From positions 1-61,145 of the IMG/VR virus record IMGVR_UViG_3300022920_000542: DNA of 61,145 bases. One strand, given 5' to 3'. Source of the stretch: a virus. Taxonomy: Duplodnaviria; Caudoviricetes. The notes below the pieces were generated by a model, which was given only the letters and a program-made list of their open reading frames with translations, did no database searches and was not told the DNA's origin. A program made the position numbers and the translations under genes. Position 1 is the stretch's first letter; each line of letters starts with the position of its first letter. Positions 3,001 through 58,546 of the stretch are shown one piece after another.

Positions 3001-3027
3001 AAGTAATTTTAACTTATATTTATATAC

Positions 3028-3071
3028 AGATAATGCTCAATGAGATTATCTAGAATGCTCAATCGAGATTC
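3028..3071 (+). promoter_or_regulatory. tandem bulged-G hairpins in the dnaK 5' UTR
   Basis: AGATAAT-G-CTC-AAT-GAG-ATTATCT and GAAT-G-CTC-AATC-GAG-ATTC. Same architecture upstream of hsp20. Confidence 0.75.
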
Positions 3072-3105
3072 AAACAAACTAACAAAATAAAAAGAGGAAT
3101 AGAAA

Positions 3106-5037
3106 ATGGCTAAAGTAATTGGCATTGATTTAGGTACATCGAACAGTTGTGTTGCGGTGGTAGAAGCAGGAGAACCAAAAGTGATAACCAACTCAGAGGG
3201 AGCAAGAACTACCCCAAGTATAGTTGGATTTGCAAAAGACGGACAACGACTTGTAGGTCAGGCCGCAAAAAGGCAAGCAATCACTAATCCAGAGAATACA
3301 ATTTTTTCTGCGAAACGTCTTATTGGACGAAAATATAAAGAGATAAAGAAAGAAGTTAAAAATCTTCCTTATTCTGTTGTATCTGGTAAAAACGGAGATG
3401 CATACATCAAATGCAAAGATGGTGACGAAGAAAAAGAATATGCACCTGAGTTTATCGCAAGTATTGTTCTTGGTAAATTAAAAGCAGATGCAGAAGCATA
3501 TCTCGGAGAAGAAGTAACTCAAGCAGTTATTACCGTACCTGCATACTTTAACGATTCTCAACGACAAGCAACAAAAGACGCAGGTGAAATTGCAGGACTA
3601 GAAGTATTACGTATCGTTAATGAACCGACCGCTGCATCTCTTGCATACGGATTAGAAAAGAAAAATGAAGAAACCATTGCAGTTTACGACCTTGGTGGTG
3701 GAACATACGATGTATCTATTCTTGAAATAGGTGACGGAGTATTTGAGGTAAAGTCTACTAATGGTGATACACAATTGGGTGGTGACAATTGGGATGATAC
3801 TCTTATTGATTATCTTGTATCCGAGTTCAAGAACGAGTCTGGAATTGATTTACATGAAGATGGACAAGCAATGCAACGTCTTAAAGAAGAAGCAGAAAAA
3901 GCAAAAGTTGCTTTATCATCAAGTGCGTCCACCACAATAAATCTTCCATTTATTACGGCAGATGCAAGTGGACCAAAACACTTAAACATCGATGTTACTC
4001 GTAGCAAGTTTGAACAAATTTGTGATTCTTTATACCAACGGACAAAAGAACCTTTTGAAAAATGTCTTGATGATGCGGGTATCACCATGAGTGATGTTAA
4101 AAACCTCATTCTCGTTGGTGGAATGACTCGTAGTCCCAAGGTTGTAGAAATTGCAAAAGAACTTGCCGGTGGTAACGATCCACACCAAGGAGTTAATCCC
4201 GATGAGGTAGTTGCCTTGGGTGCGGCCATTCAAGGTGCGATTCTTGCAGGAGACGAGGGTGTAAGTGATGTTTTGTTGCTAGATGTAACCCCACTTACTC
4301 TTGGAATAGAAACGCAAGGTGGTGTGTCTACACCAATGATAGAACGTAACACTACAATTCCAACCAAGAAGTCACAAATATTTACAACTGCAAGTGATAA
4401 TCAACCTGAAGTGGACATCGTTGTGCTTCAAGGAGAACGAGCAATGTCTGCTGATAATAAGAAACTCGGGAATTTCAAGTTAGACGGAATACAATCTGCT
4501 CCAAGAGGAACACCCCAAGTTGAAGTTACCTTTGATATTGATGCAAATGGTATTTTGAATGTAAGTGCAACTGATAAAGGAACTGGTAAAGATCAAAAAA
4601 TTACTATCAGTGATTCAAGTGGACTTGACAAAGACGAAGTTGAAAAAATGAAGGCAGATGCTGAAAAGTATGCCGATGAAGATAAACAAAAGAAAGAAAA
4701 AATTGAACTTCGTAATCAAGTAGAGTCGGGTGTTTATCAAATAGAAAAAATGCTCGAAGATAACAAAGAAAAAATTCCAGAAGACGAAGTTAAACAAACC
4801 AACAAACTTCTTGAGACTACTAAAAAAGAACTTGAAGATGCAACGATTGAACCCCATAAGTTGACTGAGTTATCAAAAAACTTAATGGATCATGTCCAAA
4901 CATTAATTCCTCATACACAACCTGATGAATCACAAGAAACTACCGATAGTGATGAAGAAATACCTACTAGCAATGATGAAGATGTAGTTGACGCTGATTT
5001 TGAAGTCGTGGATGAAGAAGAAAAAACTTCTAGTTAA
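3106..5037 (+). CDS. dnaK: Hsp70 chaperone DnaK
   Basis: [56 protein letters not shown]; GAGGA RBS upstream. Confidence 0.97.
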
Positions 5038-5056: not shown

Positions 5057-5087
5057 AAGGTGAGGATTATGTCCTCACCTTTTTTTT
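5057..5087 (+). terminator. rho-independent terminator after dnaK
   Basis: AAGGTGAGGA-TTATG-TCCTCACCTT followed by a T run. Confidence 0.85.
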
Positions 5088-6731: not shown

Positions 6732-6788
6732 AATATATATTATATTTATATTCAAATAAAGGTTATGTTCACTTAATGATGATGTGAT

Positions 6789-9682: not shown

Positions 9683-9728
9683 GTATAAATATTAACTACC
9701 TATAAATATATACATTTTATATAAGTAC

Positions 9729-13444: not shown

Positions 13445-14860
13445 TCAAAATACAAAGAACTCGTTGCTTTTGTTTTTCTCACTTGCTTGGTTGGGAGATT
13501 CTGCATCTTTAAGACGAGTTTTGGCAATGATTGCATAATCCTTTTCTTTTTCAATTCCGATGTATTTTCTATCAAGCATTTTGGCTGCGATACAAGTTGT
13601 TCCACTTCCAACAAACGGATCAACGACCACATCATTCTCACGACTTCCAAGTGTTATCAAATAACTCATTAGTTCAATTGGTTTAACGGTTGGATGAACA
13701 TTTTGTTTTTCCGTGACAAATCTACCAGTAACATCGTGGTCGATTTTGCTATTGCTCATATCTTCTGCATTTCTTCTTCCTGGCATTGAAGAACTTTTCT
13801 TTTTAGGAAGATGTTCAAGACCTTTGTTTTTTTCTGCTTTGCTTGCTTTCGGAACAATCATAAAAGGAAAAGTCTTTTGAACACTTTCGGGCAATTTATG
13901 TATTTGTGATTTCCACCAAGAATCCAAATCATAAAAACGAGAAAACGATCCTTCGTCTCCGTAAGTTCTTCCGGCGGGTTTGCCTGTGCTTTCTTGCCAA
14001 ATACCACCAGATGCACTTCCACTATCTGTGTGTTTTCCTTTGCTTCGTTTTACTCCATCGTTAAGTACATCATCTTGTACAATTAAGTTGGCTGCGAATC
14101 TTCCGTCTGGTTTGTCGTAACCAATTTGTTCTCCACTTGAATAAACTCCAGTATTTTCTCCGTGGAATCCACCACGATTATCACTTTGTTTATTTTGAGA
14201 TTCTGATTGATCGTTTTCGTTTTTGTAAGGAATTCTACAATCGTCCAACCAAGTAATTCCTTTACCATTTTTCATTGCTTGTTCAATGGTGGTTTTTTCT
14301 GTAATTGGTTTCATTGCAACAAGCACAACTTCCACCGCAGGTTTAGGTTGATAACCTACATAAGAACCCTCAAGTGCTTTTGCTTCATCGGATGCAGGTT
14401 CAGTTATATCGGGTGTTCTTCTTTCCTGTGTGTCACTATCCTTCCAATTGTTATATGTAGTTAGTTCTTGGTTGCCTTCAGGAGTTTTGTATTTTCCAAT
14501 AACTTTTCTTTTTTTACCAAGTTGTTTGCCCACCGTCTTTCCCACATTATGTGCTTTTGGAAATCCTGTTGCGTATGTCCAATAAATCGGAGTGAATCCG
14601 ATATTGAATCCTGCATCTTCTAAACGAACCATCATACGACTTTGTACATCTGAACGAGGTGCTGACATAACAAAGCAGAATCCTCCTGGTTTCAAAACTC
14701 GTAGACACTCTTGCCAAATTTCCAATGCAGGAACTGCTTTGTCCCAATCACGATTCATAAACGAGTATCCATAAGGTGGGTCTGTACACACCATGTCTAC
14801 CGATTCGTCCTCAAGTTTCTTGAGAACTTTCAAACTATCTCCATTAATTATCTTATTCAT
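13445..14860 (-). CDS. DNA amino-methyltransferase (N6A/N4C, beta class)
   Basis: VCTDPPYG near the N-terminus; HPTVKP, VVDPFVGSGTT, YIGIE near the C-terminus. Start at MNKII. Confidence 0.9.
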   Translation of the reverse strand: MNKIINGDSLKVLKKLEDESVDMVCTDPPYGYSFMNRDWDKAVPALEIWQECLRVLKPGGFCFVMSAPRSDVQSRMMVRLEDAGFNIGFTPIYWTYATGFPKAHNVGKTVGKQLGKKRKVIGKYKTPEGNQELTTYNNWKDSDTQERRTPDITEPASDEAKALEGSYVGYQPKPAVEVVLVAMKPITEKTTIEQAMKNGKGITWLDDCRIPYKNENDQSESQNKQSDNRGGFHGENTGVYSSGEQIGYDKPDGRFAANLIVQDDVLNDGVKRSKGKHTDSGSASGGIWQESTGKPAGRTYGDEGSFSRFYDLDSWWKSQIHKLPESVQKTFPFMIVPKASKAEKNKGLEHLPKKKSSSMPGRRNAEDMSNSKIDHDVTGRFVTEKQNVHPTVKPIELMSYLITLGSRENDVVVDPFVGSGTTCIAAKMLDRKYIGIEKEKDYAIIAKTRLKDAESPNQASEKNKSNEFFVF

Positions 14861-15752
14861 TAAAGTCAAAAAATTTATTTGATTGTACACGCAAGTCATC
14901 AAGTGAGCAATAGTCAGGAACTTCATACTCTCCTTCTTTGCGGAATACCATAACGTATTCGTGTATCTTGCTTGTGTATCTTTTGCTTGCTACCTTACCT
15001 GCTTGCAACGGAGCAAATGGACTGATGTTCTTCATTATGATTGTATCGTGGTGAATCAACTTCTCTTTGGTAAACAAGGAAATCAAGTCGGAATGAAACG
15101 AACGAAGTCCACCACCCTTGGGACATCTCCAATCACCCACAACCCAAACACAGAATGCTCCTGGTTTCAATACACGATTAATGTGGTATCCACAAAAACC
15201 AACTTGCTTCAAAAACTTTTCGTAGGTTTCGCAATCACTAAGTTGGTTGGTTACACTTTCATACTTCTCAATGTCGTGATAAGGAGGGCAAGTGAATACC
15301 AAATCGGCAACCTCATCATCGGTGAAAGTAAGAAACAATCCATCGTTATTATAAAGTTTAGGCGATACCCCCAACTTTTTAAAATGCTCCGTAACTCGTT
15401 TATATGTCGTTGGAGAAATTTCGTAACCTTCGTATTGCCTTCCCATCTTGGATGCCACTACCGCACGGGTAGCACGACCTGCGAAGGGGTCTACGACCAC
15501 ACTTCCCTTCATGCTCCAATACCTAAGAATCTGTTCTGCTACTCCTGCGTGGAACTCACTAAACTTTAATCCAGGTAGGTACTTCGCATCGTCACTTCGT
15601 CTGCTTTCGTTTTCTCCATCATCCAAATATGCTTCCTTCCACGATGCCTTTGATTCTTTGGATGGTTCAAGAATACTCATAGGTAACCACCCGAATTGTT
15701 CATCAATACGACAATCGTCCCTAATGGGTAATACTTGCTTATAGACTTTCAT
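14853..15752 (-). CDS. DNA amino-methyltransferase with CPPY variant motif
   Basis: VVDPFAG (motif I), FTCPPY (motif IV variant), RVLKPG, HEYVMVFRK; TAATG overlap with the polymerase stop. Confidence 0.85.
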   Translation of the reverse strand: MKVYKQVLPIRDDCRIDEQFGWLPMSILEPSKESKASWKEAYLDDGENESRRSDDAKYLPGLKFSEFHAGVAEQILRYWSMKGSVVVDPFAGRATRAVVASKMGRQYEGYEISPTTYKRVTEHFKKLGVSPKLYNNDGLFLTFTDDEVADLVFTCPPYHDIEKYESVTNQLSDCETYEKFLKQVGFCGYHINRVLKPGAFCVWVVGDWRCPKGGGLRSFHSDLISLFTKEKLIHHDTIIMKNISPFAPLQAGKVASKRYTSKIHEYVMVFRKEGEYEVPDYCSLDDLRVQSNKFFDFNE

Positions 15753-20487: not shown

Positions 20488-20546
20488 TTTATATTATTGA
20501 TTTAAGGTTATGTATATGTATAAATATATATTATAGTTTGAAAATG

Positions 20547-21764
20547 TCAATTCTTTTTCCATATCCAGATGGGTTCTGCGAATGCTACATTCTTTGTTTC
20601 TTCGGTAATTTCTTTGAGGTCTTCCGAGAAATATTCACTTTTGGCATTACCTGCTCCACCTGAGTTGAATCGTTTAGTCATTTCCATTCCGATGCAACCC
20701 TGATACTTCAATCCACATGATTTAATAAAGTCATTCATTGGATTGGTGATTTCTACATAGTCGTTGATTGGTGCATTGAATACATCTGCGATATTGACTG
20801 CGAGAATTCCACCCAACTTTAATGTGGGAATAAGTTTCTGAATAGTTGCGTGTAAAAAGTTAACGTTCCAATCATCTATTTTTTTGTAACGAACCCACGA
20901 TTGAGTATCATCTTCCGAATACTTTTCTGTGTTAAAATAAGGTGGACTTGTAAAAATGGTATCAAAGAAGTTTTCGTATTTAGAATAATCTACATCTTCT
21001 GCTGGACTATCAATCAATTCAACTTCTCTGTTATGTTCAAAGAAGGTAGAATACTTTTTGTAGAACTCAATCTGCTTTTGATAATTAGGGTGGTTGTTGC
21101 TATTAGGATCAATCCCAACGTAATGTTCGGTGGTTTCACCTGTGTAGAATCCTGCTAATCTATCTCCCCATCCTGCACTAAAGTCTAATACATTTCTGCT
21201 TTTAAAGTGATCGTAAAATGCTTTTGCTACTGCCGGTTTGAATTGTGATGCGACATACTTACGAAGAGTTGTAGCAACACGAAGAGTATTAACATCAACA
21301 CGATTGAGAACTTTATCTAATGTCCAATAAGCACGAACGATTGTTTTGATTCCTTTAACAGTTTGCCACGTCTTCCACCCACTCGGAGTTCTTGTCCAAT
21401 CTACTTTCCAACGATTTTCTACGTGAAACGGATTAGACGCATTGTTACCCGAGTTGTTTCTTTTTAATAGAAACTGAGAACCTTTATAGTTCAAGTGATA
21501 GTTGCTTTTTCTTTCGTTGCGAGGAAACCACTTTCTTTCAACGAGAACATCGTTATGCTTGATTCCTTTTAACTTGTTTAAACTATCAAGGGTTTGTTTA
21601 TCACTAATCTCGGGTAACGGAGCAGGATAAGTATGCAATACTTTTGCTAGTTCTTCTACGACATCTTCTTTCTCATACTTTTGCATGAGGTTTTTCCACT
21701 CGTCTTCTTCAATGAGAAGATATGGTTTCATGTCGTAGAACTTTTTGAAATGCTCTTTTAGCAT
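20547..21764 (-). CDS. DNA amino-methyltransferase, SPPY type
   Basis: ASQFKP, VLDFSAGWGDRL, YVGIDPN, IFTSPPYFNTEKYS, VNIAD, EPIWIW. Start at MLKEH. Confidence 0.88.
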   Translation of the reverse strand: MLKEHFKKFYDMKPYLLIEEDEWKNLMQKYEKEDVVEELAKVLHTYPAPLPEISDKQTLDSLNKLKGIKHNDVLVERKWFPRNERKSNYHLNYKGSQFLLKRNNSGNNASNPFHVENRWKVDWTRTPSGWKTWQTVKGIKTIVRAYWTLDKVLNRVDVNTLRVATTLRKYVASQFKPAVAKAFYDHFKSRNVLDFSAGWGDRLAGFYTGETTEHYVGIDPNSNNHPNYQKQIEFYKKYSTFFEHNREVELIDSPAEDVDYSKYENFFDTIFTSPPYFNTEKYSEDDTQSWVRYKKIDDWNVNFLHATIQKLIPTLKLGGILAVNIADVFNAPINDYVEITNPMNDFIKSCGLKYQGCIGMEMTKRFNSGGAGNAKSEYFSEDLKEITEETKNVAFAEPIWIWKKN

Positions 21765-21765
21765 T

Positions 21766-22491
21766 TTAATTTTTTGACTCAACCTGATAATTGTCGGGAA
21801 GATTACCCCGTTCTGCATCCCGTTTTGCTCTATGTGATTTTATATGTTCAAGAACACTCGGATCAACATTTTTAGTTTCAGACTGACCACCATTTGTCTC
21901 TTTCACAATTTTATTAACAGGTTGAAATCCAGTTTCTACATCTGTTAATGATGCAGAGTTTTCGGTGGTTTTCTTTGTGTCAGAGTATCTTGTTTGTGTG
22001 GGTGGCATACTTGCTTCGGTTAATTTTTCTGGATTGATCTGCAAATCAGATGTCGTTGCAATATTTTCTATTGTATCGTGAATATCACTATATTTTTTTT
22101 GAGAATAAACTTGATTGTTTATCGTAATATTCTTTTTTGTTTCTGTGTTCACAATGTTTTTGTCAGTAACCTTAATCAAAGACTCGATTTCTTCTTCAGT
22201 AACTTTCTCAACTACATTTTCAGTTGTGGTTGTTTCAGTTGTAGTTAAATCTACTGTTCTAAATTCATCATCTGATTCAGTTTCGTCTGTTGATTTAATT
22301 TTATTTCTAAGATGATTTTCAAAAACCGATAGCAGACCCGTTACAGGTTTTTTATCAAATGACTCTTCATATTTATCTTTATCTTGTAAAGAGTCTACTG
22401 ACATTTCCTGTACCGGATCTACTTTTTTATTTTTTTCTGAAAATCCTTTTGCTACTTTTTTAAACTTCTCGTCTATATTATCTAATGACAT
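21766..22491 (-). CDS. hypothetical low-complexity (T/E/K-rich) protein
   Basis: 241 aa ORF with AGGAG RBS. Confidence 0.6.
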   Translation of the reverse strand: MSLDNIDEKFKKVAKGFSEKNKKVDPVQEMSVDSLQDKDKYEESFDKKPVTGLLSVFENHLRNKIKSTDETESDDEFRTVDLTTTETTTTENVVEKVTEEEIESLIKVTDKNIVNTETKKNITINNQVYSQKKYSDIHDTIENIATTSDLQINPEKLTEASMPPTQTRYSDTKKTTENSASLTDVETGFQPVNKIVKETNGGQSETKNVDPSVLEHIKSHRAKRDAERGNLPDNYQVESKN

Positions 22492-24308: not shown

Positions 24309-24384
24309 GCATCGGTGGCTCGAATGGCTAGGCAAGGGACTGCAAATCCCTATCATGCAGGTTCGAGTCCTGTCCGATGCTCCA
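24309..24384 (+). tRNA. tRNA-Cys(GCA)
   Basis: Acceptor GCATCGG/CCGATGC, anticodon arm AGGGA-CTGCAAA-TCCCT, GTTCGAGTC T loop, U73, encoded CCA. Confidence 0.93.
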
Positions 24385-24396
24385 TATCAATTTTAT

Positions 24397-24472
24397 GCCA
24401 CTTTAGCTCAGATGGTAGAGCACCTCACTTGTAATGAGGATGTCGTCAGTTCGATCCTGACAAGTGGCTCCA
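24397..24472 (+). tRNA. tRNA-Thr(TGT)
   Basis: GCCACTT/AAGTGGC, CCTCA-CTTGTAA-TGAGG, GTTCGATC, encoded CCA. Confidence 0.95.
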
Positions 24473-24480
24473 TTTTATGT

Positions 24481-24557
24481 CGGGATATAGCGTAGCCTGG
24501 TATCGCGCTTGCTTTGGGAGCAAGAGGTCGCAGGTTCAAATCCTGCTATCCCGACCA
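24481..24557 (+). tRNA. tRNA-Pro(TGG)
   Basis: CGGGATA/TATCCCG, CTTGC-TTTGGGA-GCAAG, GTTCAAATC, encoded CCA. Confidence 0.95.
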
Positions 24558-24571
24558 TAGTTTTATTGTTT

Positions 24572-24646
24572 TGCTCGGTAGCTCAGTGGCAGAGCAGGTG
24601 ACTGTTAATCACTTTGTCGTTGGTTCGACCCCAACCCGAGCAGCCA
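24572..24646 (+). tRNA. tRNA-Asn(GTT)
   Basis: TGCTCGG/CCGAGCA, GGTGA-CTGTTAA-TCACT, GTTCGACC, encoded CCA. Confidence 0.95.
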
Positions 24647-25776: not shown

Positions 25777-25814
25777 ATTTCTATAAAAATTGCGTTTATC
25801 GTATATTTATAGAC

Positions 25815-26172: not shown

Positions 26173-27726
26173 ATGACTAAACCCAAGTGTACAAAAACAT
26201 CATGCTTGTATCCAGAAACGTGTGACTGGAATAATATGTGCATGACAGAGCAACTTGAAATAAGTAATTCTGTAAGACTTAATGAAACCTCAATTGATAA
26301 GATTGGGGTTCTTTTGTGTCATGGGTTTCTATCTAAACACGAACAAATGGTCCCACTAAGCAATTATATATACGAAGCCCTTGGGTGGGAAACTAGTTTA
26401 GTTGAATTAACCGGACATGGATATGATCAAGAAAACATTGCAACTGCAACTTGGAACAACTGGGTTGATGATGTAAAAGAAAAGTATTTAAGTTTAAGGC
26501 AACGATGTGATAAAGTTTATATGATTGGGTTCTCGTTGGGTGGTTGTGTATCTGCATATGTTGCTAGTTTAAAAAGCATACGACCTGAAGGTTTGATTAT
26601 TGTAAATGGTGTGTTTGGTGTTAAGAATGTTTTCAACAAACTTCTTCCTGGTGTAATGATCTACAACAAAGTATGCAGTAAATTGAAACTTCAAAAGATT
26701 ATGTTGGAATCGATAACCAACGATAGTGAAGATCCTGATTTGAATCAACCTCTTGTGAATTTGTCGGCAACAAACGAATTGCGTAAAATGTCTAAAATAG
26801 CAGGTACTATATTACAAGATGTTAAGTGTCCTACATTTTTAATTCAAGAATACAATGATCCAACTGTATTTTATGGAAGTGGAAAACGAGCATTCAAAAA
26901 ACTAGGTGCTACTTTCAAACGATTTTATACAACCAAGTTAAATACTCATCTTACGATTCATGACAAAGGACTTGAGTGTAGTGTGTTTTGTAAAGTCTTG
27001 GAATTTTTAAAAGATGTTGAAAAGGATGATTTCGTTAATATTGCTCATCGTGGAGCAAGTGGTGATTTTACTGAAAACACCCTGCAGGCATTTGAAGAAG
27101 CAATTGATCGTGGTTGTGATGCAATTGAATTTGATGTACAAATTATAGGAAGTCGTTTTAGAATATTTCACGACCGTAACTTTCATAGAATGTTTGGGAT
27201 TGATATTGAAACAAATAAAATATCGGAAGCTGAGGTATCTAAATTAGTTTATCCGAACCTTGAGAAACTTCCTACCTTACAAGAAGCACTTGATTGTATA
27301 AATGGTCGTGTTGATGTTAACATTGAAGTCAAAAGTAATCAAGTTGCTGTAAACATTGCTAATATAGCAGAATCATATTTAGGAAAACCAGAGTGGAAAA
27401 ACAAAAGCATTACTTTATCGTGTTTTAGTTTTGCTACTATAAACACATTGTATAGATTCCGTAAAAAAGCAAAACTTTCATATTTGTTGTACGACCAGTA
27501 TTGTAATTTAGAAGAAATCAAACGACTTAAAGATGATTATATTAAATACAACATTCATTCGTTGAATCTTCCACTTGAAAGTATTTCCAAGCAAATCATT
27601 GAATATTGCAACGACAACAATATTAGAATATATGTATATACCGTAAATGAAATCAAACAAATTCGTTATTTACGAGAGTTGGGTGTGAGTGGTGTATTTA
27701 CTGACTTTCCTAAATTGATAAGATAA
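26173..27726 (+). CDS. fusion of alpha/beta-hydrolase (carboxylesterase/monoacylglycerol lipase-like) and glycerophosphodiester phosphodiesterase
   Basis: N-terminal CHGF, LTGHG, GFSLGG nucleophile elbow, DPTV, H; C-terminal IAHRGAS..ENTL.AF, IEFDV, FHD, NIEVK, YTVN, GVFTDFP. Confidence 0.88.
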   Translation: MTKPKCTKTSCLYPETCDWNNMCMTEQLEISNSVRLNETSIDKIGVLLCHGFLSKHEQMVPLSNYIYEALGWETSLVELTGHGYDQENIATATWNNWVDDVKEKYLSLRQRCDKVYMIGFSLGGCVSAYVASLKSIRPEGLIIVNGVFGVKNVFNKLLPGVMIYNKVCSKLKLQKIMLESITNDSEDPDLNQPLVNLSATNELRKMSKIAGTILQDVKCPTFLIQEYNDPTVFYGSGKRAFKKLGATFKRFYTTKLNTHLTIHDKGLECSVFCKVLEFLKDVEKDDFVNIAHRGASGDFTENTLQAFEEAIDRGCDAIEFDVQIIGSRFRIFHDRNFHRMFGIDIETNKISEAEVSKLVYPNLEKLPTLQEALDCINGRVDVNIEVKSNQVAVNIANIAESYLGKPEWKNKSITLSCFSFATINTLYRFRKKAKLSYLLYDQYCNLEEIKRLKDDYIKYNIHSLNLPLESISKQIIEYCNDNNIRIYVYTVNEIKQIRYLRELGVSGVFTDFPKLIR

Positions 27727-27753
27727 AGTTGTTTTAATATATATTTATTCATC

Positions 27754-29310
27754 ATGGATGTCGTTGAACATTATCTATCGGAGATTGATTTAACCGATGT
27801 TTCTTCTGAGTTAAGAACTTTGTTGAGTGAAGCTGCCACTACAAATGCCTCGGATGCCGAAGTTGCTATATGTGTTGCGTATAACATCAAACAAGGTAAG
27901 AACGAGGTAGATGCTCTTAAATCGGCAGGTGTAGACAAATCAACCTGGAAAAAGATTAAAGCAAACAAATTAGTATATAGTGCAGGTAAAAAAGTTGCGA
28001 AAGGATTAAAGAACATCGGAGGTACTTTAATATGGTCAGGAAAAACATCTGCATCTACATTTTACAAAAACGGAAAAAAAGAAGCATCAAAAGCAGACTT
28101 AATAGGAAACAATCGTAATCGGTTATCGGTGAAGCAAGCAAGTGGTTCTGCAAAAAGTGCTCAACTTGTTAGTGGAACTTCGGGTGAAGCAAGAGGAGTA
28201 TTTGAGTTTGCAGTTAAACATCTTGAAGCAAGTGGTGGAAAACTGACATCTGATTCTGAGATTAAAGAGTTGTTTGATATTTTTGAAAAAGAAATGTCAA
28301 AAGCAATTCGTACTGATATAAATGTGGAAGTCGGAAAAGGTAAAAAGGATTTTCGTGATTGGGTTATATCTGACAGTGGTCGTTATGATGTTGTTAAGTC
28401 AAAAGCAAAGCAAGCAACGGACGATGAAATAAAACGACACATTCGTGCAGAGTTGGCAGTTAATAATGCTATATCAAATGCAGATGCTCCAAAACTTCAA
28501 GGAGATTACATCAAAGGAGTTAAACCATTAACTGCAAAGCAAATCAGCAAAATGCGTTCTGATTATATTTCATCGGATATGAAAATTGGTGATGTTACAA
28601 TTGCTAAAGATTATCTTGAAAAAGCAAATGTACCTTCTGATTTATTAACCAAGGAAGCACTTAGAACTCAAATAATGGATTTGATTGATGTGGCATTAAA
28701 AGCAGATACTTGGAAAACTCGTATTCGTGAGATTATGCAAAACAACGCAGAGCTTAAAAAGTGGATTGTTTATGAAGCTGCAAGTGGTCTTGGTAAGTTT
28801 ACAGGTAAAGCATCTAAAGGAGGAAATTACTTTGGTGATAATACTGCGGTTGCTAACAAGATATTGGTATTTGATTCTAAAGGTGTAAAAAAAGTACACG
28901 ATTTATTCAAGTGGTCACAAAGCAATGGTAATCTTTGTAATAATGTAGATATTAGTTTCAAAGGAAGTGGTCGCAGAAAATTCATTAAGTTTGGATTGGC
29001 TGCTGAATCTATTGATAGCAATATAGATAACATCATAAACGAAGAATACAACAAACTTGAAGATCAATTGAAACTGCTTAACGAAGGTAAAATTTGGGAC
29101 ACCATAAAAAGTGGATTTGATTCTGCGTCAACTTGGGTTAAATCATCGTATGATAAAATTGAAGTTTTACTTTTGCAATTTTATGAAAAGGTTGTAAAGG
29201 GAGTTCTTGATTACTTTTGGGAACTATTTCAAAAAGGATTGAGTCCCGTACTTGAAAAAATGGGATTCATTATGGAAGGTGTATGTTCGTTATCTGTTCC
29301 TGTTTGGTAA
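27754..29310 (+). CDS. putative PD-(D/E)XK-fold nuclease-like late protein, paralog 1
   Basis: DAEVAI, SKADL, RLSVKQ, AQLVSG...EA, YEAASG.GKF; shares MD(V/I)VEHY start and amphipathic C-terminus with the next gene. Confidence 0.55.
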   Translation: MDVVEHYLSEIDLTDVSSELRTLLSEAATTNASDAEVAICVAYNIKQGKNEVDALKSAGVDKSTWKKIKANKLVYSAGKKVAKGLKNIGGTLIWSGKTSASTFYKNGKKEASKADLIGNNRNRLSVKQASGSAKSAQLVSGTSGEARGVFEFAVKHLEASGGKLTSDSEIKELFDIFEKEMSKAIRTDINVEVGKGKKDFRDWVISDSGRYDVVKSKAKQATDDEIKRHIRAELAVNNAISNADAPKLQGDYIKGVKPLTAKQISKMRSDYISSDMKIGDVTIAKDYLEKANVPSDLLTKEALRTQIMDLIDVALKADTWKTRIREIMQNNAELKKWIVYEAASGLGKFTGKASKGGNYFGDNTAVANKILVFDSKGVKKVHDLFKWSQSNGNLCNNVDISFKGSGRRKFIKFGLAAESIDSNIDNIINEEYNKLEDQLKLLNEGKIWDTIKSGFDSASTWVKSSYDKIEVLLLQFYEKVVKGVLDYFWELFQKGLSPVLEKMGFIMEGVCSLSVPVW

Positions 29311-29339
29311 TAAAACATCTTTGATATATATTTATTGTC

Positions 29340-30965
29340 GTGGATATAGTAGAACATTATATTAAAAACATAGATACTTCTTTTGAAGTTGATGATATAT
29401 TATGTGAACTTGCATTGCACGATTTGTTTAAACGAGATAACAAGCAACGATTCATTGACAAAGTTGATGGTAACGAAGTTCTTGATGATAAAAACAATCC
29501 TCTTAAAATTAAAAGTGGTACTACTGCTTTATGGAAAGATATGAAGAAGCAACTTTTATCTGCAACAGACAAAGATGGAATTGCTGATTGGGGTGGTCGT
29601 GGTGAAACCAAGATAAAACAACTATTTGGTGTTCCTATTAGTAAAATAGGCAAATCTCAGAATGATATGAGTGGGGGAGCAAGTAGTGGAAATCCAAGTG
29701 GAGAAGATTGGGAAGCAATGATTGCTATTGGTCTTGCTACTATTGAAAAGAAAGACCCATCAAAAGAAGTACCTGACGAATGGTCAAGAATAGATCGAAA
29801 GGGTTTTTGGGATAGTGAATTTAATCGTGACATCGCAGAAAAGATTGCAAGTGCATTTAAGAAAAACGGATATGCACCCATTTCGCAAACTGGTAGTGGA
29901 AAGGGTGGTGTGGGTGTATCAAGTGAATGGGGAGAGATATTCAAAGAATACGGAAGTGGTAGTATGAACAAAACTCCAAAGACTGACCTCAAGGGAGGTT
30001 CAAAGAAAATTTCATTAAAAAAAGCAGGTGGTTCTCAAGCAATGAGTGCCAAGCAAGCTGAAGCAGCTTCTACATTCGGAGCAGCTGTTAGTATGTATGG
30101 TAAAAATTATCCAAGTAGTGTAAATAAAATCTTAGATTCATTTAAGAGTTCAATTCTTGATTTATCTGAAAGTGGTTACCGTGGTAGTATATCTGCTCTT
30201 GAAAAAGACATCAACGCAAGTGAAGGTGATCCAAAGAAAATGAAGAAACTTAAACCAGTAGTTGATAATTTGAAGCAAGCAAGAGATGATGGTAAGTTTA
30301 TTACATCTGAAATGAATCGTTTGTTTTTAAGTGATTCAAAATTCAAAGATTTATTTGTATTTGAAGCTGCTACCGGTTCTGTTAAGTTTGGTGATTCTTC
30401 GGAAAGTCGTGCTGATACTATGGTGGAAATTGATACTGATAGTGGTAAAATTACATCGCAATACAAAATGAATTCTCCAAGTGATATTTCTTCGTTAGCA
30501 AGTCAATACAAGTTTTATTTGTCATTCAAAACAAGTGGTAATAGCACTCCTTATATGGCACTTAGAGGAAATATGGAACAAGACCCAAAGAAGGTTACTG
30601 CGTGGATGAAGAAGCAGGTTGTAGAAAATAAAAACTTTTCAACGATATGTCCAACATTTTCTACTATTATTCAAGAAGGTTTCAAACAAGACGATTTTGG
30701 AAAAAGATTATTAACTGAATCAAGTTTCCAAAATCTCAATGAGTGGCAATTACTTAAAAAAGTTCGTGACGGAATAACATCTGTTAGCAACAAGGTAAAA
30801 GACCGTTTTGTTAAAATATGGAATTGGATTTCCGAACGAGTTTCTGTTGCATTTGATTGGTTAAAGAAGCAAGGAGCAAAAGCACTTGTTTATCTTCAAA
30901 AGTTTTTTGGAGTGAAACTTGACAAGTGTGGAATAAATGGAAAGATAGAACTTTTCTCTGCTTAA
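29340..30965 (+). CDS. putative PD-(D/E)XK-fold nuclease-like late protein, paralog 2
   Basis: DWEAMI, TPKTDL, KISLKK, SQAMSA...EA, FEAATG.VKF; GTG start behind ATATTTAT. Confidence 0.55.
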   Translation: MDIVEHYIKNIDTSFEVDDILCELALHDLFKRDNKQRFIDKVDGNEVLDDKNNPLKIKSGTTALWKDMKKQLLSATDKDGIADWGGRGETKIKQLFGVPISKIGKSQNDMSGGASSGNPSGEDWEAMIAIGLATIEKKDPSKEVPDEWSRIDRKGFWDSEFNRDIAEKIASAFKKNGYAPISQTGSGKGGVGVSSEWGEIFKEYGSGSMNKTPKTDLKGGSKKISLKKAGGSQAMSAKQAEAASTFGAAVSMYGKNYPSSVNKILDSFKSSILDLSESGYRGSISALEKDINASEGDPKKMKKLKPVVDNLKQARDDGKFITSEMNRLFLSDSKFKDLFVFEAATGSVKFGDSSESRADTMVEIDTDSGKITSQYKMNSPSDISSLASQYKFYLSFKTSGNSTPYMALRGNMEQDPKKVTAWMKKQVVENKNFSTICPTFSTIIQEGFKQDDFGKRLLTESSFQNLNEWQLLKKVRDGITSVSNKVKDRFVKIWNWISERVSVAFDWLKKQGAKALVYLQKFFGVKLDKCGINGKIELFSA

Positions 30966-32543
30966 TTACTTCTTGTAAAACACAAAGATAGGTTCGTACT
31001 TGTGCAACTCTCCGTTTATTTGACAACAATTTTTTATCGTTGTTCTATCTCCACGCATTGTTGCCATAAGCATTTTAAGAGTTTCAACATACTCAAGACC
31101 GTATTCGTGTAAAATATTTTTGCTATCTTCTTCAAGTGGTATATATCCACCATCGTGTGTGATGTCCGCAATATTCCACAATAAATACCTGTCGTTTCTT
31201 AAATACTGAGATGCAGTTCTTAATGTGGGACGAAGAAAGTTTTCTTTCCAATCTTCATACGATGGAAACTTCTTGAAACTCTGAGATTCATCTGCTGAAT
31301 ATTGCTCTCTATTAAAATATGGTGGACTTGTAAATACTAAATCAAATGTTCCTTTGTATTTTTCAAATTCTTTGTTTCGGTGAATGACCTCACTTCCGTC
31401 TTGAAACAAGTCGTGTGTATTGCGATGACCAAAAAACGGATTACCACCATTGGTTTTGTCGTTGAAAAAATCTGCTACATATTCGTATCTTGATTTATTG
31501 AGTTCATTTATATAGTTGTCTGTATTTGGGTCTGTTCCAACATAATGTATTTGACGATCATCTATACTCATAGCACCAAGTATTCTTCCTCCCCAACCTG
31601 CACTTGGATCATATACGGTGAGATCATTTTTGTTTTCAATGTGATCTGTATATTTTTGATAAACAAACTTTGCAGTTAGTGGTGGAAAGTTTACGGCAGG
31701 ATGTCTTCCGAGTCCAAGACGAAGTGCTTCCATTGCGGATGGAAAGATAGTTGATGTTTTGTTGTAGTAACGAACACTAAATTTATATTGAGTTTCATCA
31801 AGTGTATCAAGTTTATCAAAATCTGTATTAAAGTCTGTTGTTCGTTCTAAATTGCTGATATTGTTTTGTTCAAGCAAACCTTCTTTATGCAACTGAAGTA
31901 TTTGTTGAGCAGATAACAATAAATGATTTTCTTCATAGTCTTCAAACTTTCTTTCGGTGAAAAGTTCAATGATCCAAAAGTCATTGTTGGGATATAAATG
32001 TTTTTCTGCTATAAAGTTTCTAATCCAAGTTTCTCCATCGTTTGTTGGATATGGTACTTCATCATCATTTTTTCTTATGGTTTTTCCGTGGGCAAAAAAA
32101 GCATCTCGTCTGATGGTTCTTCTCATTGTAACATGGAAACTATCTCGTTTATCTGGATCAACAAAGTAATCGTAAATGCTTTCTGAGTGTGTACCTGTTT
32201 GTAATGCCATTTTTGTTTTAAGCATTGTTGGAAAAAACTGATCAATTACGGTTGCAAACTTGTTAAAGTTTTTAATGATTGTGTTTGTTTTGTCAAGTTC
32301 ATCGTAATGTAGAAACTTGCTAACATCATATCGTTGTAGTTTGTTAAATTGAGCAATAATGTCTTTTTCTATTTTACCACTTCTCGGTGGAATTCCACTT
32401 TTATCCCATGTAGTAACAATATAATCTCGTAAATCATCCAACCAAATTTCAAGTTCTTCTTTACTTTTTAACAACAACTGATGAAAGGTGATGTTTTGAT
32501 CCCACTCTACGAGGTTGTTTTTCTCGTAAAAATATTTCTTCAT
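30966..32543 (-). CDS. SPPY-type DNA amino-methyltransferase-like protein, paralog B
   Basis: PAVNFPPLTAK, YDPSAGWGGR, GTDPN, FTSPPYFNREQYS, WNIAD, YEPIFVF. Start MKKYF overlaps the upstream stop (ATGA). Confidence 0.88.
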   Translation of the reverse strand: MKKYFYEKNNLVEWDQNITFHQLLLKSKEELEIWLDDLRDYIVTTWDKSGIPPRSGKIEKDIIAQFNKLQRYDVSKFLHYDELDKTNTIIKNFNKFATVIDQFFPTMLKTKMALQTGTHSESIYDYFVDPDKRDSFHVTMRRTIRRDAFFAHGKTIRKNDDEVPYPTNDGETWIRNFIAEKHLYPNNDFWIIELFTERKFEDYEENHLLLSAQQILQLHKEGLLEQNNISNLERTTDFNTDFDKLDTLDETQYKFSVRYYNKTSTIFPSAMEALRLGLGRHPAVNFPPLTAKFVYQKYTDHIENKNDLTVYDPSAGWGGRILGAMSIDDRQIHYVGTDPNTDNYINELNKSRYEYVADFFNDKTNGGNPFFGHRNTHDLFQDGSEVIHRNKEFEKYKGTFDLVFTSPPYFNREQYSADESQSFKKFPSYEDWKENFLRPTLRTASQYLRNDRYLLWNIADITHDGGYIPLEEDSKNILHEYGLEYVETLKMLMATMRGDRTTIKNCCQINGELHKYEPIFVFYKK

Positions 32544-34129
32544 TTCTTGTAAAACACAAAGATAGGTTCGTACTTTTGCAACTCTCCGTTTATCTTGCAA
32601 CAATTCTTAACCGTTTCTGCTTTAACACCACGCATTGTTGTCATAAGCATTTTAAGAGTTTCTACATACTCAAGTCCGTATTCCGCAAGAATATCACGAC
32701 TATCTTTTTCTAATGGCATAAATCCGTCTCCGTCTGCGATGTCTGCGATATTCCAAAGTAGATATCTATCGTTCTTCAAATACTCGGCAGCCGTTTTCAA
32801 AGTAGGACGAAGAAAGTTGTCTCTCCAATCTGCATACTCTGGAAACTTTTTGAAACTCTGAGATTCATCTGCTGAATATTGTTCACGATTAAAATAGGGT
32901 GGACTTGTAAAAACCAAATCAAGTTTGCCTTTATATTTTTGGAAACTTGGATTATTAGAAATTTCTTCACTTCCATTTTGATAAACATCGTATGTGTTAC
33001 GATGACCAAAAAACGGATTACCTCCGTTTGTTTTATCATTAAAGAAGTCGGCAAGATATTCGTAACGACTTTTACCAAGTTCATCAATATAATTGTCGGT
33101 GTTTGGGTCAGTTCCGATATAATGAATCTGACGATCATGTACTGACATAGCACCAAGAATACGACCACCCCATCCTGCACTTGGATCATATATATGAAGA
33201 TTGCTTTTATCTTGAATGTGATCTGTGTACTTCTGATAAATGTACTTTGCAGTCAACGGAGGAAAGTTTACTGCTGGTTGACTCAAACCCAACTTAAATG
33301 CTTCCATTGCTGATGGAAAGATTCTTGAGTTTTTGTCGTAATATCTAATGCTAAAACGAAACTCTACTTCTTTGTCATCTTCTAATATAACATCATTTAT
33401 ATTTTCAATATCATCACCAAAATTTGCAGTTCTTTCTAAATTTCTGATGTTGTTGATTTCAAGCAAACCTTCTTTGTGTAATTTCTTTATTTGCTTTGCC
33501 GTAAGCATCAAACTACTTTCTTCGTATGAATCAAACTTCTTTTCGGTAAACAACTCAATAATCCAAAAGTCATTGTGTGGATGAAGATGTTTTTCTTTAA
33601 CGAAATTACGAATCCAATCTTCTGCGTTTTCAGTTGGACACGGAACGTCATAATCATTTTTCTTGATTGTTCTTCCGTGAGCATAAAACGAATCTCTTCG
33701 TACCGTTCGTCTCATACAGGTGTGGAAACTTTCTCGTTTCTCTGGATTAGCAAAGCAATCGTAAACACTCCAAGATGTATGCTTACTTGAACCTATTTTA
33801 GTTTTAAGCATTGTTGGAAAAAACTGATCAACTACGGTTGCGAACTTGTTAAAGTTTTTGACGATGGTATTTGTTCCGTCCATTTCGTCTTTGTGCTGAA
33901 ACTTATATACATTGTATCCAGACAATTTATTTAAGTTGGCAATAATACCCTTTTCGTTTTTGCCTGTTCTTGGTGGGAGGCCTTTGTTGTCCCATGTATC
34001 TACAATATAAGTTCTAAGTTCATCAATCCACTTGGTTAACTCTGTACCATTCTTCTGAAGAAGTTCGTGGAATGTAATATTAACTCTACATTCTGCAAGA
34101 TTGTTTTTTTCGTAAAAGTATTTTTTCAT
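32540..34129 (-). CDS. SPPY-type DNA amino-methyltransferase-like protein, paralog A
   Basis: Same motifs as paralog B over the full length; ATGA overlap with the PLP-enzyme stop. Confidence 0.88.
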   Translation of the reverse strand: MKKYFYEKNNLAECRVNITFHELLQKNGTELTKWIDELRTYIVDTWDNKGLPPRTGKNEKGIIANLNKLSGYNVYKFQHKDEMDGTNTIVKNFNKFATVVDQFFPTMLKTKIGSSKHTSWSVYDCFANPEKRESFHTCMRRTVRRDSFYAHGRTIKKNDYDVPCPTENAEDWIRNFVKEKHLHPHNDFWIIELFTEKKFDSYEESSLMLTAKQIKKLHKEGLLEINNIRNLERTANFGDDIENINDVILEDDKEVEFRFSIRYYDKNSRIFPSAMEAFKLGLSQPAVNFPPLTAKYIYQKYTDHIQDKSNLHIYDPSAGWGGRILGAMSVHDRQIHYIGTDPNTDNYIDELGKSRYEYLADFFNDKTNGGNPFFGHRNTYDVYQNGSEEISNNPSFQKYKGKLDLVFTSPPYFNREQYSADESQSFKKFPEYADWRDNFLRPTLKTAAEYLKNDRYLLWNIADIADGDGFMPLEKDSRDILAEYGLEYVETLKMLMTTMRGVKAETVKNCCKINGELQKYEPIFVFYKK

Positions 34130-35055
34130 TGTCTCCAAAAGTGCGATGCACAAGCACCACCTAGATTATAGAATAGTACATCTCCTTCCAATTTGCAACC
34201 ATTTTCTTTTAACCAATCCCATGCTTTTTTGTCCCAATTACCATTACAAGGAAACGGTGTATATACTTGATCCAGATCATCTGCAAACTCATGTGGGGTT
34301 TCGTGGATTTCGGTTACGTGGTTATGCTTTCCGTTTTTTGTATAGAATACACCCCACGATGTTAACTTAGTTTCAATGGAAGACTCTGATGCAGTTGTTA
34401 TGAGATGTGCTTTCTTTATGTCACTCTGATGTAATTGAAAATGTCTTTCTCCGAAAAAACCCTGAAGTAGTCCTGATGGTGTTACTCCACTACCTGCATT
34501 TACAACAAGGTGTTTAATGTTTTTGTCTGAGTTCTCTTCAAGTAGAGTTTGCATTCGTGTTTTGAAATAACCTACATAATCTGGATGATCAAACGCATAT
34601 GGCATCATTTGATATCCGTTTTTGTTTGCAAGAATATTAACCGAACTTGTTACTATACTAAGAATGTTTGGTTTCATTGGGACCAACTCTGCCCCAAGAC
34701 TTTCTATTTTTTCAAGTGCTTTTTTGGGATAGTCTTTCGTATTAGGGTATGCAATCTTAATATCAAATCCAAGTTCACGACCCATATATGCCAATGCCCA
34801 ACCACTATAACTTACAGCAACTGACAGATGGATTATAGGTTTGTTTCTTGTAAGTTTTTCAACCGAGTATGTCTGATTCTTGTTATTGTCATCAGTAAAT
34901 GCCCCATCACTTTCAAGGACTCTACGAATGCCTTCTAACTTTGCCCACGGTGGTAAATCTAAATTTCCGTTTAGCAAATCGTCACGTTTTACGTAAACTT
35001 TTTTTTCTCCACATAAATGTTCTTCGAGTGGAGTATCAAAATTAAAGGAGAGCAT
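34126..35055 (-). CDS. PLP-dependent enzyme, fold type II (ACC deaminase/D-cysteine desulfhydrase/TrpB-like)
   Basis: VYVKRDDL...WAKL (PLP lysine region), SYSGWALA, VVNAGSGVT phosphate loop, WDKKAW, LFYNLGG. Confidence 0.82.
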   Translation of the reverse strand: MLSFNFDTPLEEHLCGEKKVYVKRDDLLNGNLDLPPWAKLEGIRRVLESDGAFTDDNNKNQTYSVEKLTRNKPIIHLSVAVSYSGWALAYMGRELGFDIKIAYPNTKDYPKKALEKIESLGAELVPMKPNILSIVTSSVNILANKNGYQMMPYAFDHPDYVGYFKTRMQTLLEENSDKNIKHLVVNAGSGVTPSGLLQGFFGERHFQLHQSDIKKAHLITTASESSIETKLTSWGVFYTKNGKHNHVTEIHETPHEFADDLDQVYTPFPCNGNWDKKAWDWLKENGCKLEGDVLFYNLGGACASHFWRQ

Positions 35056-51829: not shown

Positions 51830-51893
51830 TATTTATATATCATAAAACAATATATGTATATTTATAGATTCACATACTTTTAGAAATTTACGC

Positions 51894-57164: not shown

Positions 57165-57836
57165 ATGAAAAAATATACCGAATCACAACTAGAAGAAAAC
57201 TACAAATCCTTTTTAAAGTTTATTGAAGACACATTCACGGGAGAGAGACAAGAAAAACTACTACATATGTTTGGTACGGACGATGGTTGTCTCGGACTTC
57301 GTGCGTTACTTTCCCCTGCATCCAGTATAGATAGATTTCATAACGCATATGACGGTGGATACATAGACCATATTATGGGTGTATGTAAAACAGTGCGTGG
57401 AGTTAAAGTGTTATTACAAAGCATAGGTGCTCACATAGACTTCACAGATGACGAGATGATGTTCGCAGCTTTTAATCACGACCTTGGTAAGTTGGGTTCT
57501 ATTGATGGGGAGCAATATGTACACAACGAAAGTGAATGGCATCGCAAAAACCAAGGTAAGTTGTATAATATAAATCCAGATATTCACTGGATGTCCGTTA
57601 CAGATAGAACAATTTGGTTACTTCAGCATTTTGAAATTAAAATTACAGAAAAAGAGTTTCTGGGGATAAAATTATCTGACGGAATGTATGATGAATCAAA
57701 TCCACAATATCTAAAGGCATTCTCAAAAGAAGTTGGACTAAAAACCGAACTACCACGTGTAATTCACTGGGCAGATCACATGACCTGTTTGGCAGAAAAA
57801 TCAAATATGGATGACATAATGAAGTTTGAACCATAA
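57165..57836 (+). CDS. HD-domain phosphohydrolase
   Basis: SPAS....HNAY.GGYIDH, NHDLGK, IHWAD. Confidence 0.85.
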   Translation: MKKYTESQLEENYKSFLKFIEDTFTGERQEKLLHMFGTDDGCLGLRALLSPASSIDRFHNAYDGGYIDHIMGVCKTVRGVKVLLQSIGAHIDFTDDEMMFAAFNHDLGKLGSIDGEQYVHNESEWHRKNQGKLYNINPDIHWMSVTDRTIWLLQHFEIKITEKEFLGIKLSDGMYDESNPQYLKAFSKEVGLKTELPRVIHWADHMTCLAEKSNMDDIMKFEP

Positions 57837-57863
57837 TTTTAATTAACTTTATATTTATACACA

Positions 57864-57913
57864 GAACAATGCTCGTATGAGGTTGTTTGACAAATGCCCA
57901 ACATGGGATTTGT
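57864..57913 (+). promoter_or_regulatory. tandem bulged-G hairpins in the hsp20 5' UTR
   Basis: GAACAAT-G-CTC-GTAT-GAG-GTTGTTT and ACAAAT-G-CCC-AACAT-GGG-ATTTGT. Confidence 0.75.
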
Positions 57914-57934
57914 AATTAAAAAAGGAAAAGTAAA

Positions 57935-58432
57935 ATGAAAAACTACGGATTAAATAAGTCCTACGGAACAGGACTAAATAAACACGTTCCAACTATGCGA
58001 GATGAGTTTTTAACTCCATTTGACTCCATATTTGACAAAATGGTCAATCAAGCATTTCCAAATTTTGGTCAAGAATTTGGTGTAAACTTCTTCGGAAACA
58101 GTTCATATCCAAGGGTAAACGTAGCAGACACCAAGACTGAAGTAAGAATTGAGGCAGAAATAGCGGGACTAGGAAAAGATGATGTATCGGTTGAATATGA
58201 AGACGGTATGCTCACAATCTCAGGAGACAAAAAGACTGAAATTGAAGATCCTGATGTAAAATACGTATATCGTGAACTTAAGAGATCCTCCTTCAAGAGA
58301 TCATTTAAAGTTGACGAATCGGTTCTTCATGTTAGTAAAATTACAGCCAAGTTTGATAATGGGATATTAAATGTAACCATACCGAAAAAAGAAGTTATGG
58401 AAACTAAGTCAAAAAAAGTAAAGATAATGTAA
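57935..58432 (+). CDS. hsp20: small heat shock protein (Hsp20/alpha-crystallin)
   Basis: YPRVNV, EIAG..K.DV, LTISG, RE....SF.RSF, AKFDNGIL.V.IPK. Confidence 0.93.
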   Translation: MKNYGLNKSYGTGLNKHVPTMRDEFLTPFDSIFDKMVNQAFPNFGQEFGVNFFGNSSYPRVNVADTKTEVRIEAEIAGLGKDDVSVEYEDGMLTISGDKKTEIEDPDVKYVYRELKRSSFKRSFKVDESVLHVSKITAKFDNGILNVTIPKKEVMETKSKKVKIM

Positions 58433-58454: not shown

Positions 58455-58479
58455 AAAAAGGGAGTTACTCCCTTTTTTT
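58455..58479 (+). terminator. rho-independent terminator after hsp20
   Basis: AAAAAGGGAG-TTA-CTCCCTTTTTTT. Confidence 0.75.
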
Positions 58480-58546
58480 ATAATTATATTATATTTATAG
58501 AAAGTACGATGGTCGTATAAAGTTTAATGAGGAGATATATATTATT

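Follow-up and report, generated by a model that had tools for sequence, protein, structure and literature searches.

The DNA analysed here (the window, in what follows) is the 61,145-base IMG/VR virus record IMGVR_UViG_3300022920_000542, with about 35% G+C and an estimated completeness of about 26%. It contains two heat-shock genes some 55 kb apart, dnaK (3106..5037; 643 aa, ATG at 3106; Pfam HSP70 PF00012, E 6.8e-253) and hsp20 (57935..58432; 165 aa, ATG at 57935; Pfam HSP20 PF00011, E 1.7e-18), and the same promoter-plus-leader cassette stands before both. The genes and all the features of their cassettes lie on the + strand. Ahead of dnaK, a promoter-like TATATTTATA (3015..3024), the first six bases of which (TATATT) we take as the -10, is followed by a first hairpin (3028..3051; AGATAAT-G-CTC-AAT-GAG-ATTATCT) with a 7-bp lower stem, a bulged G at 3035, a CUC/GAG inner stem and a 3-nt loop. 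A single unpaired A (3052) separates it from a second hairpin (3053..3071; GAAT-G-CTC-AATC-GAG-ATTC) with a 4-bp lower stem, a bulged G at 3057, the same CUC/GAG inner stem and a 4-nt loop. The A-rich spacer that leads on to the gene (3072..3105) is unpaired in both MFE and centroid folds and holds a Shine-Dalgarno-like (SD) AGAGGA at 3093-3098.

The hsp20 cassette is laid out in the same way. A promoter-like stretch (57826..57859), made up of TTGAAC-18-TATATT (57826-57855) and an overlapping TATATTTATA (57850-57859), precedes hairpin 1 (57864..57888; GAACAAT-G-CTC-GTAT-GAG-GTTGTTT), in which a U.G pair adjoins the bulged G at 57871. In hairpin 2 (57890..57913; ACAAAT-G-CCC-AACAT-GGG-ATTTGT; bulged G at 57896) the inner stem is CCC/GGG, a compensatory change relative to CUC/GAG, and the unpaired A-rich spacer (57914..57934) carries AGGA at 57923-57926. 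A terminator-like stem with a T run is found 3' of dnaK (5057..5081) and again 3' of hsp20 (58455..58477). With a promoter-like and a terminator-like site each, the two genes are therefore independent one-gene units.

MFE folds of the two full leaders consist of exactly these two hairpins, and the SD and the AUG are unpaired in MFE and centroid structures alike. The core pattern AATGCYC-N3-6-GRGRTT has four matches in the 61,145 bases, all on the + strand, compared to 0.06 expected, and four matches were reached in 0/100 shuffles. A covariance model built from relatives (R1), run across both strands of the window with filters off, scores the hsp20 leader at 71.1 bits and the dnaK leader at 57.4 bits, the next best site reaching 15.6 bits. 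It was conceivable that such a model would hit random loci equally often; instead, in the window only the two chaperone-leader sites score high. The original prediction, which had placed four hairpins at dnaK and hsp20 as the sole heat-shock genes of this stretch, is thus borne out by the four pattern matches and by the two sites that R1 finds; its coordinates and sequences for the dnaK pair are exact, and the hsp20 pair is located at 57864-57888 and 57890-57913.

The promoter is not what sets these two genes apart. At intergenic spots in the window, the TATATTTATA motif matches 35 times at no more than one mismatch, against 16.5 matches expected. Given how frequent it is in intergenic regions, the promoter appears to serve the phage in general, and what is special to dnaK and hsp20 is the pair of hairpins. 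Examples of TATATTTATA-like sequence lie at 6741-6750, 9701-9710 (-), 20519-20528 (-), 25802-25811, 51857-51866 and 58490-58499, often just 3-15 nt 5' of a start codon. Probably the motif represents the phage's own promoter class, which would yield leaderless messages or messages with very short leaders. In relatives, the sequence before hsp20 reads TTGAC-N17/18-TATATT. A sigma-70 scan did not call the dnaK copy of the promoter, owing to its weak -35.

In all leaders seen, 7-10 nt separate the end of the -10 TATATT from the first paired base, which puts the predicted transcription start 1-3 nt ahead of hairpin 1. The outermost pairs of the hairpins covary (see below) and must therefore be part of the transcript. 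In four seawater metatranscriptome runs, for which contigs only were considered, dnaK is covered in pieces, without a 5' end, and DNA carry-over is possible; one metatranscriptome contig of a relative spans from the upstream gene through the hairpins.

The element is a conserved cis-acting RNA family in a clade of uncultured large marine phages. Searching IMG/VR with a strict 26-base pattern returns 39 viral loci, 38 of which are relatives (32 before hsp20 and six before dnaK), the remaining one being an unrelated G+C-rich repeat; a looser tandem pattern returns 80 viral loci, 23 of them true relatives and 57 not. Pattern searches of this kind fix the core beforehand. Protein-based retrievals are free of that bias but reach only proteins that are 75-98% identical, and within this range the hairpins stand before 25/25 viral loci encoding Hsp20 (75-98% identity) and before 6/6 viral dnaK loci with upstream sequence, a seventh locus beginning inside the gene. 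The same is true of 24/24 metagenome dnaK loci of at least 77% identity for which upstream sequence is present (ten more are cut off upstream). Among metagenome dnaK loci at or below 63% identity (n=36), R1 finds 0 matches.

Five related records of 130-170 kb (65-84% complete) allow exclusivity to be judged over a larger part of the genome. In each of them, two sites and no more score strongly with R1, namely the hsp20 leader and the dnaK leader, which are separated by about 50-56 kb, and a single-hairpin pattern finds no further solitary paired hairpin in the five records, only two unpaired chance matches. Linkage in cis to the phage dnaK and hsp20 genes, and to these alone, therefore holds in the window and in each relative. 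How far the element defines a "chaperone regulon", as had been proposed, is a different matter. The term is apt for dnaK and hsp20; it does not extend to dnaJ (355-370 aa), a gene that four of the five larger relatives encode on the strand opposite to dnaK and about 4.5 kb away from it, as no hairpins were found in its upstream regions. GrpE and Cpn10 were not found in the five records, which are incomplete.

As regards the viruses themselves, DnaK proteins 80-89% identical to that of the window sit on contigs of 398-569 kb, and a 358-kb contig carries one relative locus that shares the upstream gene and has the hairpins in its leader. Of the five related records, four bear the IMG/VR label "provirus". 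When DNA polymerases are compared, the closest cultured phage is Microcystis phage Mel-JY01 (47.5% identity, T4-type cyanophages being at about 33%), in which the element is absent, the best R1 score being 16 bits.

To what extent is the structure itself under selection, rather than the sequence? In an alignment of 45 distinct copies fitted to the model (A4), standard pairs make up 99.0% of 816 pair cells, compared to 93.1 +/- 0.4% in column shuffles, 0/500 of which reach the observed value; in a control where partners were slid relative to one another, just 27-50% of cells are paired. Compensatory changes are present in 6/19 pairs of A4. Cells changed on both sides number 90, a count matched by 0/500 shuffles, and the number of pairs with double changes was reached in 33/500 shuffles. 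Two MAFFT alignments (A1 and A2) agree with A4, and RNAalifold independently predicts the same two stems. Note that the dnaK and hsp20 leaders are homologous cassettes, in which promoter, hairpins and SD region all align, so that the shared core partly reflects common descent and independent events are far fewer than covarying cells. Series such as U-A, U.G, C-G at one pair are seen inside the hsp20 set and inside the dnaK set, not merely between the two. Homologous leaders thus show the covariation expected of a structured RNA, as the original prediction had held this element to be.

The wobble pairs reveal which strand is folded. Wobble cells are one-sided, with 74 G.U against 1 A.C, from which it follows that the folded molecule is the sense-strand RNA, and neither the antisense strand nor a DNA palindrome read by a protein. 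This bears directly on the proposal that the two imperfect palindromes 3' of the -10 are a double-stranded DNA operator bound by a heat-shock repressor, in the manner of CIRCE and HrcA. The element does overlap positions +1 to +46 relative to promoters that serve dnaK and a small heat-shock gene, a placement typical of the operators of such repressors. However, the symmetry exists on one strand only, as RNA; lower-stem positions that are not conserved nonetheless stay complementary, something a DNA-binding protein has no need of; in all copies the two half-sites differ by the unpaired G; and the spacing of the half-sites differs between hairpins 1 and 2. We consider a DNA operator highly improbable. 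CIRCE, through which HrcA represses dnaK and groE operons, acts as duplex DNA and comprises a single perfect inverted repeat of 9 bp whose spacer is fixed at 9 nt. It shares with the phage element the position of an inverted repeat between promoter and start codon of dnaK-type genes, and differs from it in that each phage site has two short imperfect repeats with loops of 3-5 nt, in which an unpaired G is always present and G.U pairs are confined to one strand. No sequence common to the two was noticed, and the element was rejected as a CIRCE/HrcA operator on the strength of its two repeats per site, short loops, unpaired G and G.U bias.

Conservation is distributed very unevenly along the element. 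In hairpin 1, A-A-U, the unpaired G, C-U-C, G-A-G and the U-U that follows (columns 7-13, 19-21 and 23-24) are invariant across 45/45 copies. Hairpin 2 permits only R-A-U, CYC/GRG (with compensatory changes) and R-U-U, so that the core consensus for both hairpins is 5'-(A/G)AU-G-CYC ... GRG-RUU-3', with the G unpaired. Exactly one nucleotide lies between the stems in 45/45 copies. All four lower-stem pairs and every loop position vary, the lower stems remaining paired as they do so. Loop length, and with it half-site spacing, is 4 nt in hairpin 1 (3 in the dnaK leader of the window and 5 in one copy) and 4 or 5 nt in hairpin 2. Two divergent dnaK leaders have the U and the G of hairpin 2 in reverse order, so that the unpaired G is retained but displaced by one step.

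A core that is fixed while loops and lower stems drift, present twice per message, is what leads us to read the element as an RNA operator. Our preferred explanation, which we put forward tentatively, is that the twin hairpins are a 5'-terminal operator for a putative trans-acting factor that would co-regulate both messages after transcription. Each message would start from the common TATATT(TATA) promoter of the phage, placing the hairpins at its extreme 5' end. The nascent leader would fold at once into two adjacent stem-loops with a 1-nt joint, followed by an unpaired A-rich stretch with the ribosome-binding site; the two cores would then dock two copies of the factor (or a dimer or oligomer of it), and the factor would jointly adjust how stable the dnaK and hsp20 messages are or how well they are translated. 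Incidentally, the 5'-terminal stem might also shield the message from decay that depends on the 5' end. That two invariant cores on variable stems form a putative dimeric protein-binding site is a reasonable inference from the pattern of conservation. Comparable arrangements are known: in the thrS leader, two like hairpins bind two subunits of threonyl-tRNA synthetase, and the coat-protein operators of MS2 and PP7 are contacted chiefly at a purine that bulges from the stem. As these operators are generally described, the phage leader may resemble them in its twin hairpins and in its unpaired purine.

Might the hairpins do nothing more than cap the message? Stems at the 5' terminus with few unpaired nucleotides before them slow 5'-end-dependent decay, as in leaders of E. 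coli ompA, of Bacillus and of phage SP82. A passive stabiliser of this kind would prolong the life of both messages with neither a trans-acting factor nor a signal, and the stem is indeed predicted to begin 1-3 nt after the transcription start, a likeness to the known cases where a stem lies a few nucleotides from the end of the message. Yet those stabilisers act by structure alone, and the phage core is invariant. Passive stabilisation leaves unexplained why the core and its unpaired G (45/45 copies of hairpin 1) should be invariant and why two hairpins with free lower stems and loops should be needed, and other genes with the same promoter motif are without such stems. We regard it as rather unlikely that this is all the hairpins do.

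A further possibility is that the RNA acts in cis on the transcription or processing machinery, either by modifying RNA polymerase, as put does, or by presenting stacked stems as a site for a double-strand-specific nuclease. The put element of phage HK022 is transcribed immediately downstream of a promoter and consists of two stems with a single unpaired nucleotide between them; it acts in cis, binds RNA polymerase and suppresses terminators further down long operons. Going by this general description, the two would be alike in that the phage stems directly follow the promoter, are 1 nt apart in 45/45 copies and could stack into about 19-20 bp. The difference lies downstream: the phage units are single genes, no terminator-like site occurs between the hairpins and the gene end, and hence there is nothing obvious to antiterminate. 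Action on the transcription or processing machinery therefore strikes us as improbable.

Returning to the RNA operator, its main rival is a sensor of temperature. ROSE and ROSE-like elements precede small heat-shock genes of alpha- and gamma-proteobacteria and, like the phage element, have a 5' leader with at least two stem-loops and a local module of a pyrimidine paired to G/A, an unpaired G, then C-G and U-A, the UGCU strand lying opposite a G-rich 3' strand. Excerpts of one report give the ROSE-like motif as U(U/C)GCU with a bulged G and a U.G then a C-G pair around the bulge (PMC11342760). As far as those excerpts describe the module, the phage core fits it through its 5'-UGCU with bulged G, through the U.G pair beside the bulge (26/45 hairpin-1 copies) and through a 3' strand that reads GAGG. 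When the strand is compared letter by letter, the phage has A-U-G-C-U or A-U-G-C-C with the G unpaired in 45/45 copies of hairpin 1 and 43/45 of hairpin 2; four of the five letters fit and the first, an A and not a U, does not. The genes, moreover, are heat-shock genes, and the lower stems are rich in A-U and G.U pairs.

The defining step of the ROSE mechanism is that the module pairs with the gene's own SD, which heat then frees. In the phage leaders the real SD and the AUG are unpaired, so that unmasking of the SD cannot apply: the bulged-G strand pairs with GAG or GGG inside the same hairpin, 22-60 nt upstream. There are also two modules per leader, both at the extreme 5' end. None of the ROSE models in Rfam matches a 106-base query even at E up to 10. 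The view that this is not a classical ROSE, already taken on first inspection, accordingly stands. There might still be a temperature-labile leader derived from ROSE, in which heat melts the hairpins and alters translation or decay by another route, such as the unmasking of two SD-like strands further upstream to which ribosomes are drawn, or the loss of a site for a nuclease or repressor. In a nearest-neighbour model all four hairpins are folded at seawater temperatures, the unfolded fraction being below 0.001 at 30 C and half-melting occurring only above about 60 C, although the model is unreliable for bulged stems. On balance, a heat-labile leader seems unlikely to us.

If the twin hairpins are an operator, what might bind them? 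Excerpts of PMC10474464 report that E. coli IbpA binds the 5' UTR of ibpA and represses ibpA translation, that this self-regulation does not tolerate the replacement of Arg93, a residue of the beta6-beta7 loop within the alpha-crystallin domain, and, together with the abstract of PMC10410725, that the feedback also controls a second message. The parallel is that of a structured 5' UTR of a small heat-shock gene, and it would explain why hsp20 and a second chaperone gene have one operator in common. The two differ in that the ibpA UTR masks its SD, and the phage leader leaves it unpaired. By this analogy the phage Hsp20 is an attractive candidate for the binding partner. Phage Hsp20, or the DnaK/DnaJ pair, might bind the bulged-G cores and hold both messages down until unfolded virion proteins titrate the binder away and release them, a scenario that we would nevertheless call unlikely in its full form. 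Were it true, the loop from Hsp20 or DnaK back to the leaders would amount to an IbpA-style aggregation sensor on a phage, with ROSE-like modules moved from the ribosome-binding site to the 5' end. In a gapless alignment (A3) with IbpA from NC_000913.3, the R93 column is Ser in 4/4 phage Hsp20 proteins, with an Arg one residue earlier, and a one-residue register shift is possible; the R97 column is Arg. The alpha-crystallin domain of phage Hsp20 has a cationic KR..FKR cluster, and residues 1-21 (57935-57997) form a conserved N-terminal extension that E. coli IbpA and IbpB are without.

An AUG is found in the 5' arm of every hairpin in the window (3033-3035, 3055-3057, 57869-57871 and 57894-57896). 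One could imagine that it opens a short reading frame, gated by the hairpin and coupled to the main start, and an AUG is indeed part of every canonical core. The frames that begin at these AUGs are of varying length. In 22/24 distinct hsp20 leaders, the one opened by the hairpin-2 AUG ends no more than 8 nt from the main start, forms an ATGA overlap with it or shares its frame; keep in mind, though, that the spacer is just 8-10 codons long, so that a frame ending near the main start is to be expected. At dnaK, the stop of this frame may lie at any point between -43 and -6, or the frame enters the gene out of register, and the hairpin-2 AUG is absent in 2/22 distinct leaders. The peptides are not conserved beyond the constraint on the RNA. 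That a leader peptide accounts for the element is, in our estimation, very improbable indeed.

Is the RNA already known under another name? It might have matched a described family; no family in Rfam 15 does so, whether gathering scores are applied across the whole window or the cut-off is relaxed to E up to 10 for 6 kb and for the leaders alone (101-106 bases). The best score for the hsp20 leader is that of DUF2815 RNA (RF03084; 21.8 bits against a gathering score of 41.2) at 57883-57937, an alignment that falls mostly within the A-rich stretch around the SD; for the dnaK leader it is 6A RNA (RF02925; 12.9 bits, E 5.7, gathering score 41.2) at 3028-3045. A full-text literature search returned no description of such a leader, nor of how phages control their own chaperones.

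An origin of the element in the host was rejected: the strict tandem pattern has 0 matches across 185,579 prokaryote species, each represented by one genome. Among the matches listed in a retrieval by peptide words, the nearest cellular DnaKs are those of Opitutales (Verrucomicrobiota), at about 70% identity to a phage-lineage protein, and R1 finds 0 matches at 80 bacterial dnaK loci, mostly from Verrucomicrobiota. Across 151 genomes of the order to which an Opitutales genome belongs, R1 gives one 34-bit match, 46 nt before carB. This was rejected as a true copy, since the homologous site of a second genome breaks the pairing of hairpin 2 and minimum free energy favours another stem, of 8 bp; the match is probably due to chance. 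Upstream of bacterial dnaK, Opitutales and their kin have GGCAC-N5-TGCA close to the start and TGTGACA/TGTCACA words repeated further up, which looks like a sigma-54-type promoter with enhancer sites.

Phage-encoded DnaK, DnaJ and Hsp20 are known from large aquatic phages, as excerpts of PMC12619734 report. The present results point to a previously undescribed RNA switch by which a phage controls its own chaperones. The leader is a compact candidate for a new RNA family among the structured leaders already known from heat-shock genes, and places a ROSE-like bulged-G module in a setting where masking of the ribosome-binding site is impossible, which would widen the roles supposed for that module. 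With about 50 nt to mutate, it also offers an element on which to test how a virus tunes its own protein-folding capacity.

Some other features of the window deserve mention. Four tRNA genes (Cys-GCA, Thr-TGT, Pro-TGG and Asn-GTT) are clustered at 24309-24646. At 26173-30965, three tandem genes of 517-541 aa have similar beginnings, the first with a tail-fibre-like C-terminal part (phrog_16641), and look like a paralogous receptor-binding set. Methylase-like paralogues are unusually many (13445-14926, 20547-21818, 30966-32603 and 32540-34153, all on the - strand), with matches to DNA methyltransferase families or phrog_12517. Finally, a low-complexity repeat at 59583-59957 is open on both strands, one frame being rich in Gly and Val and the other in Leu and Gln.
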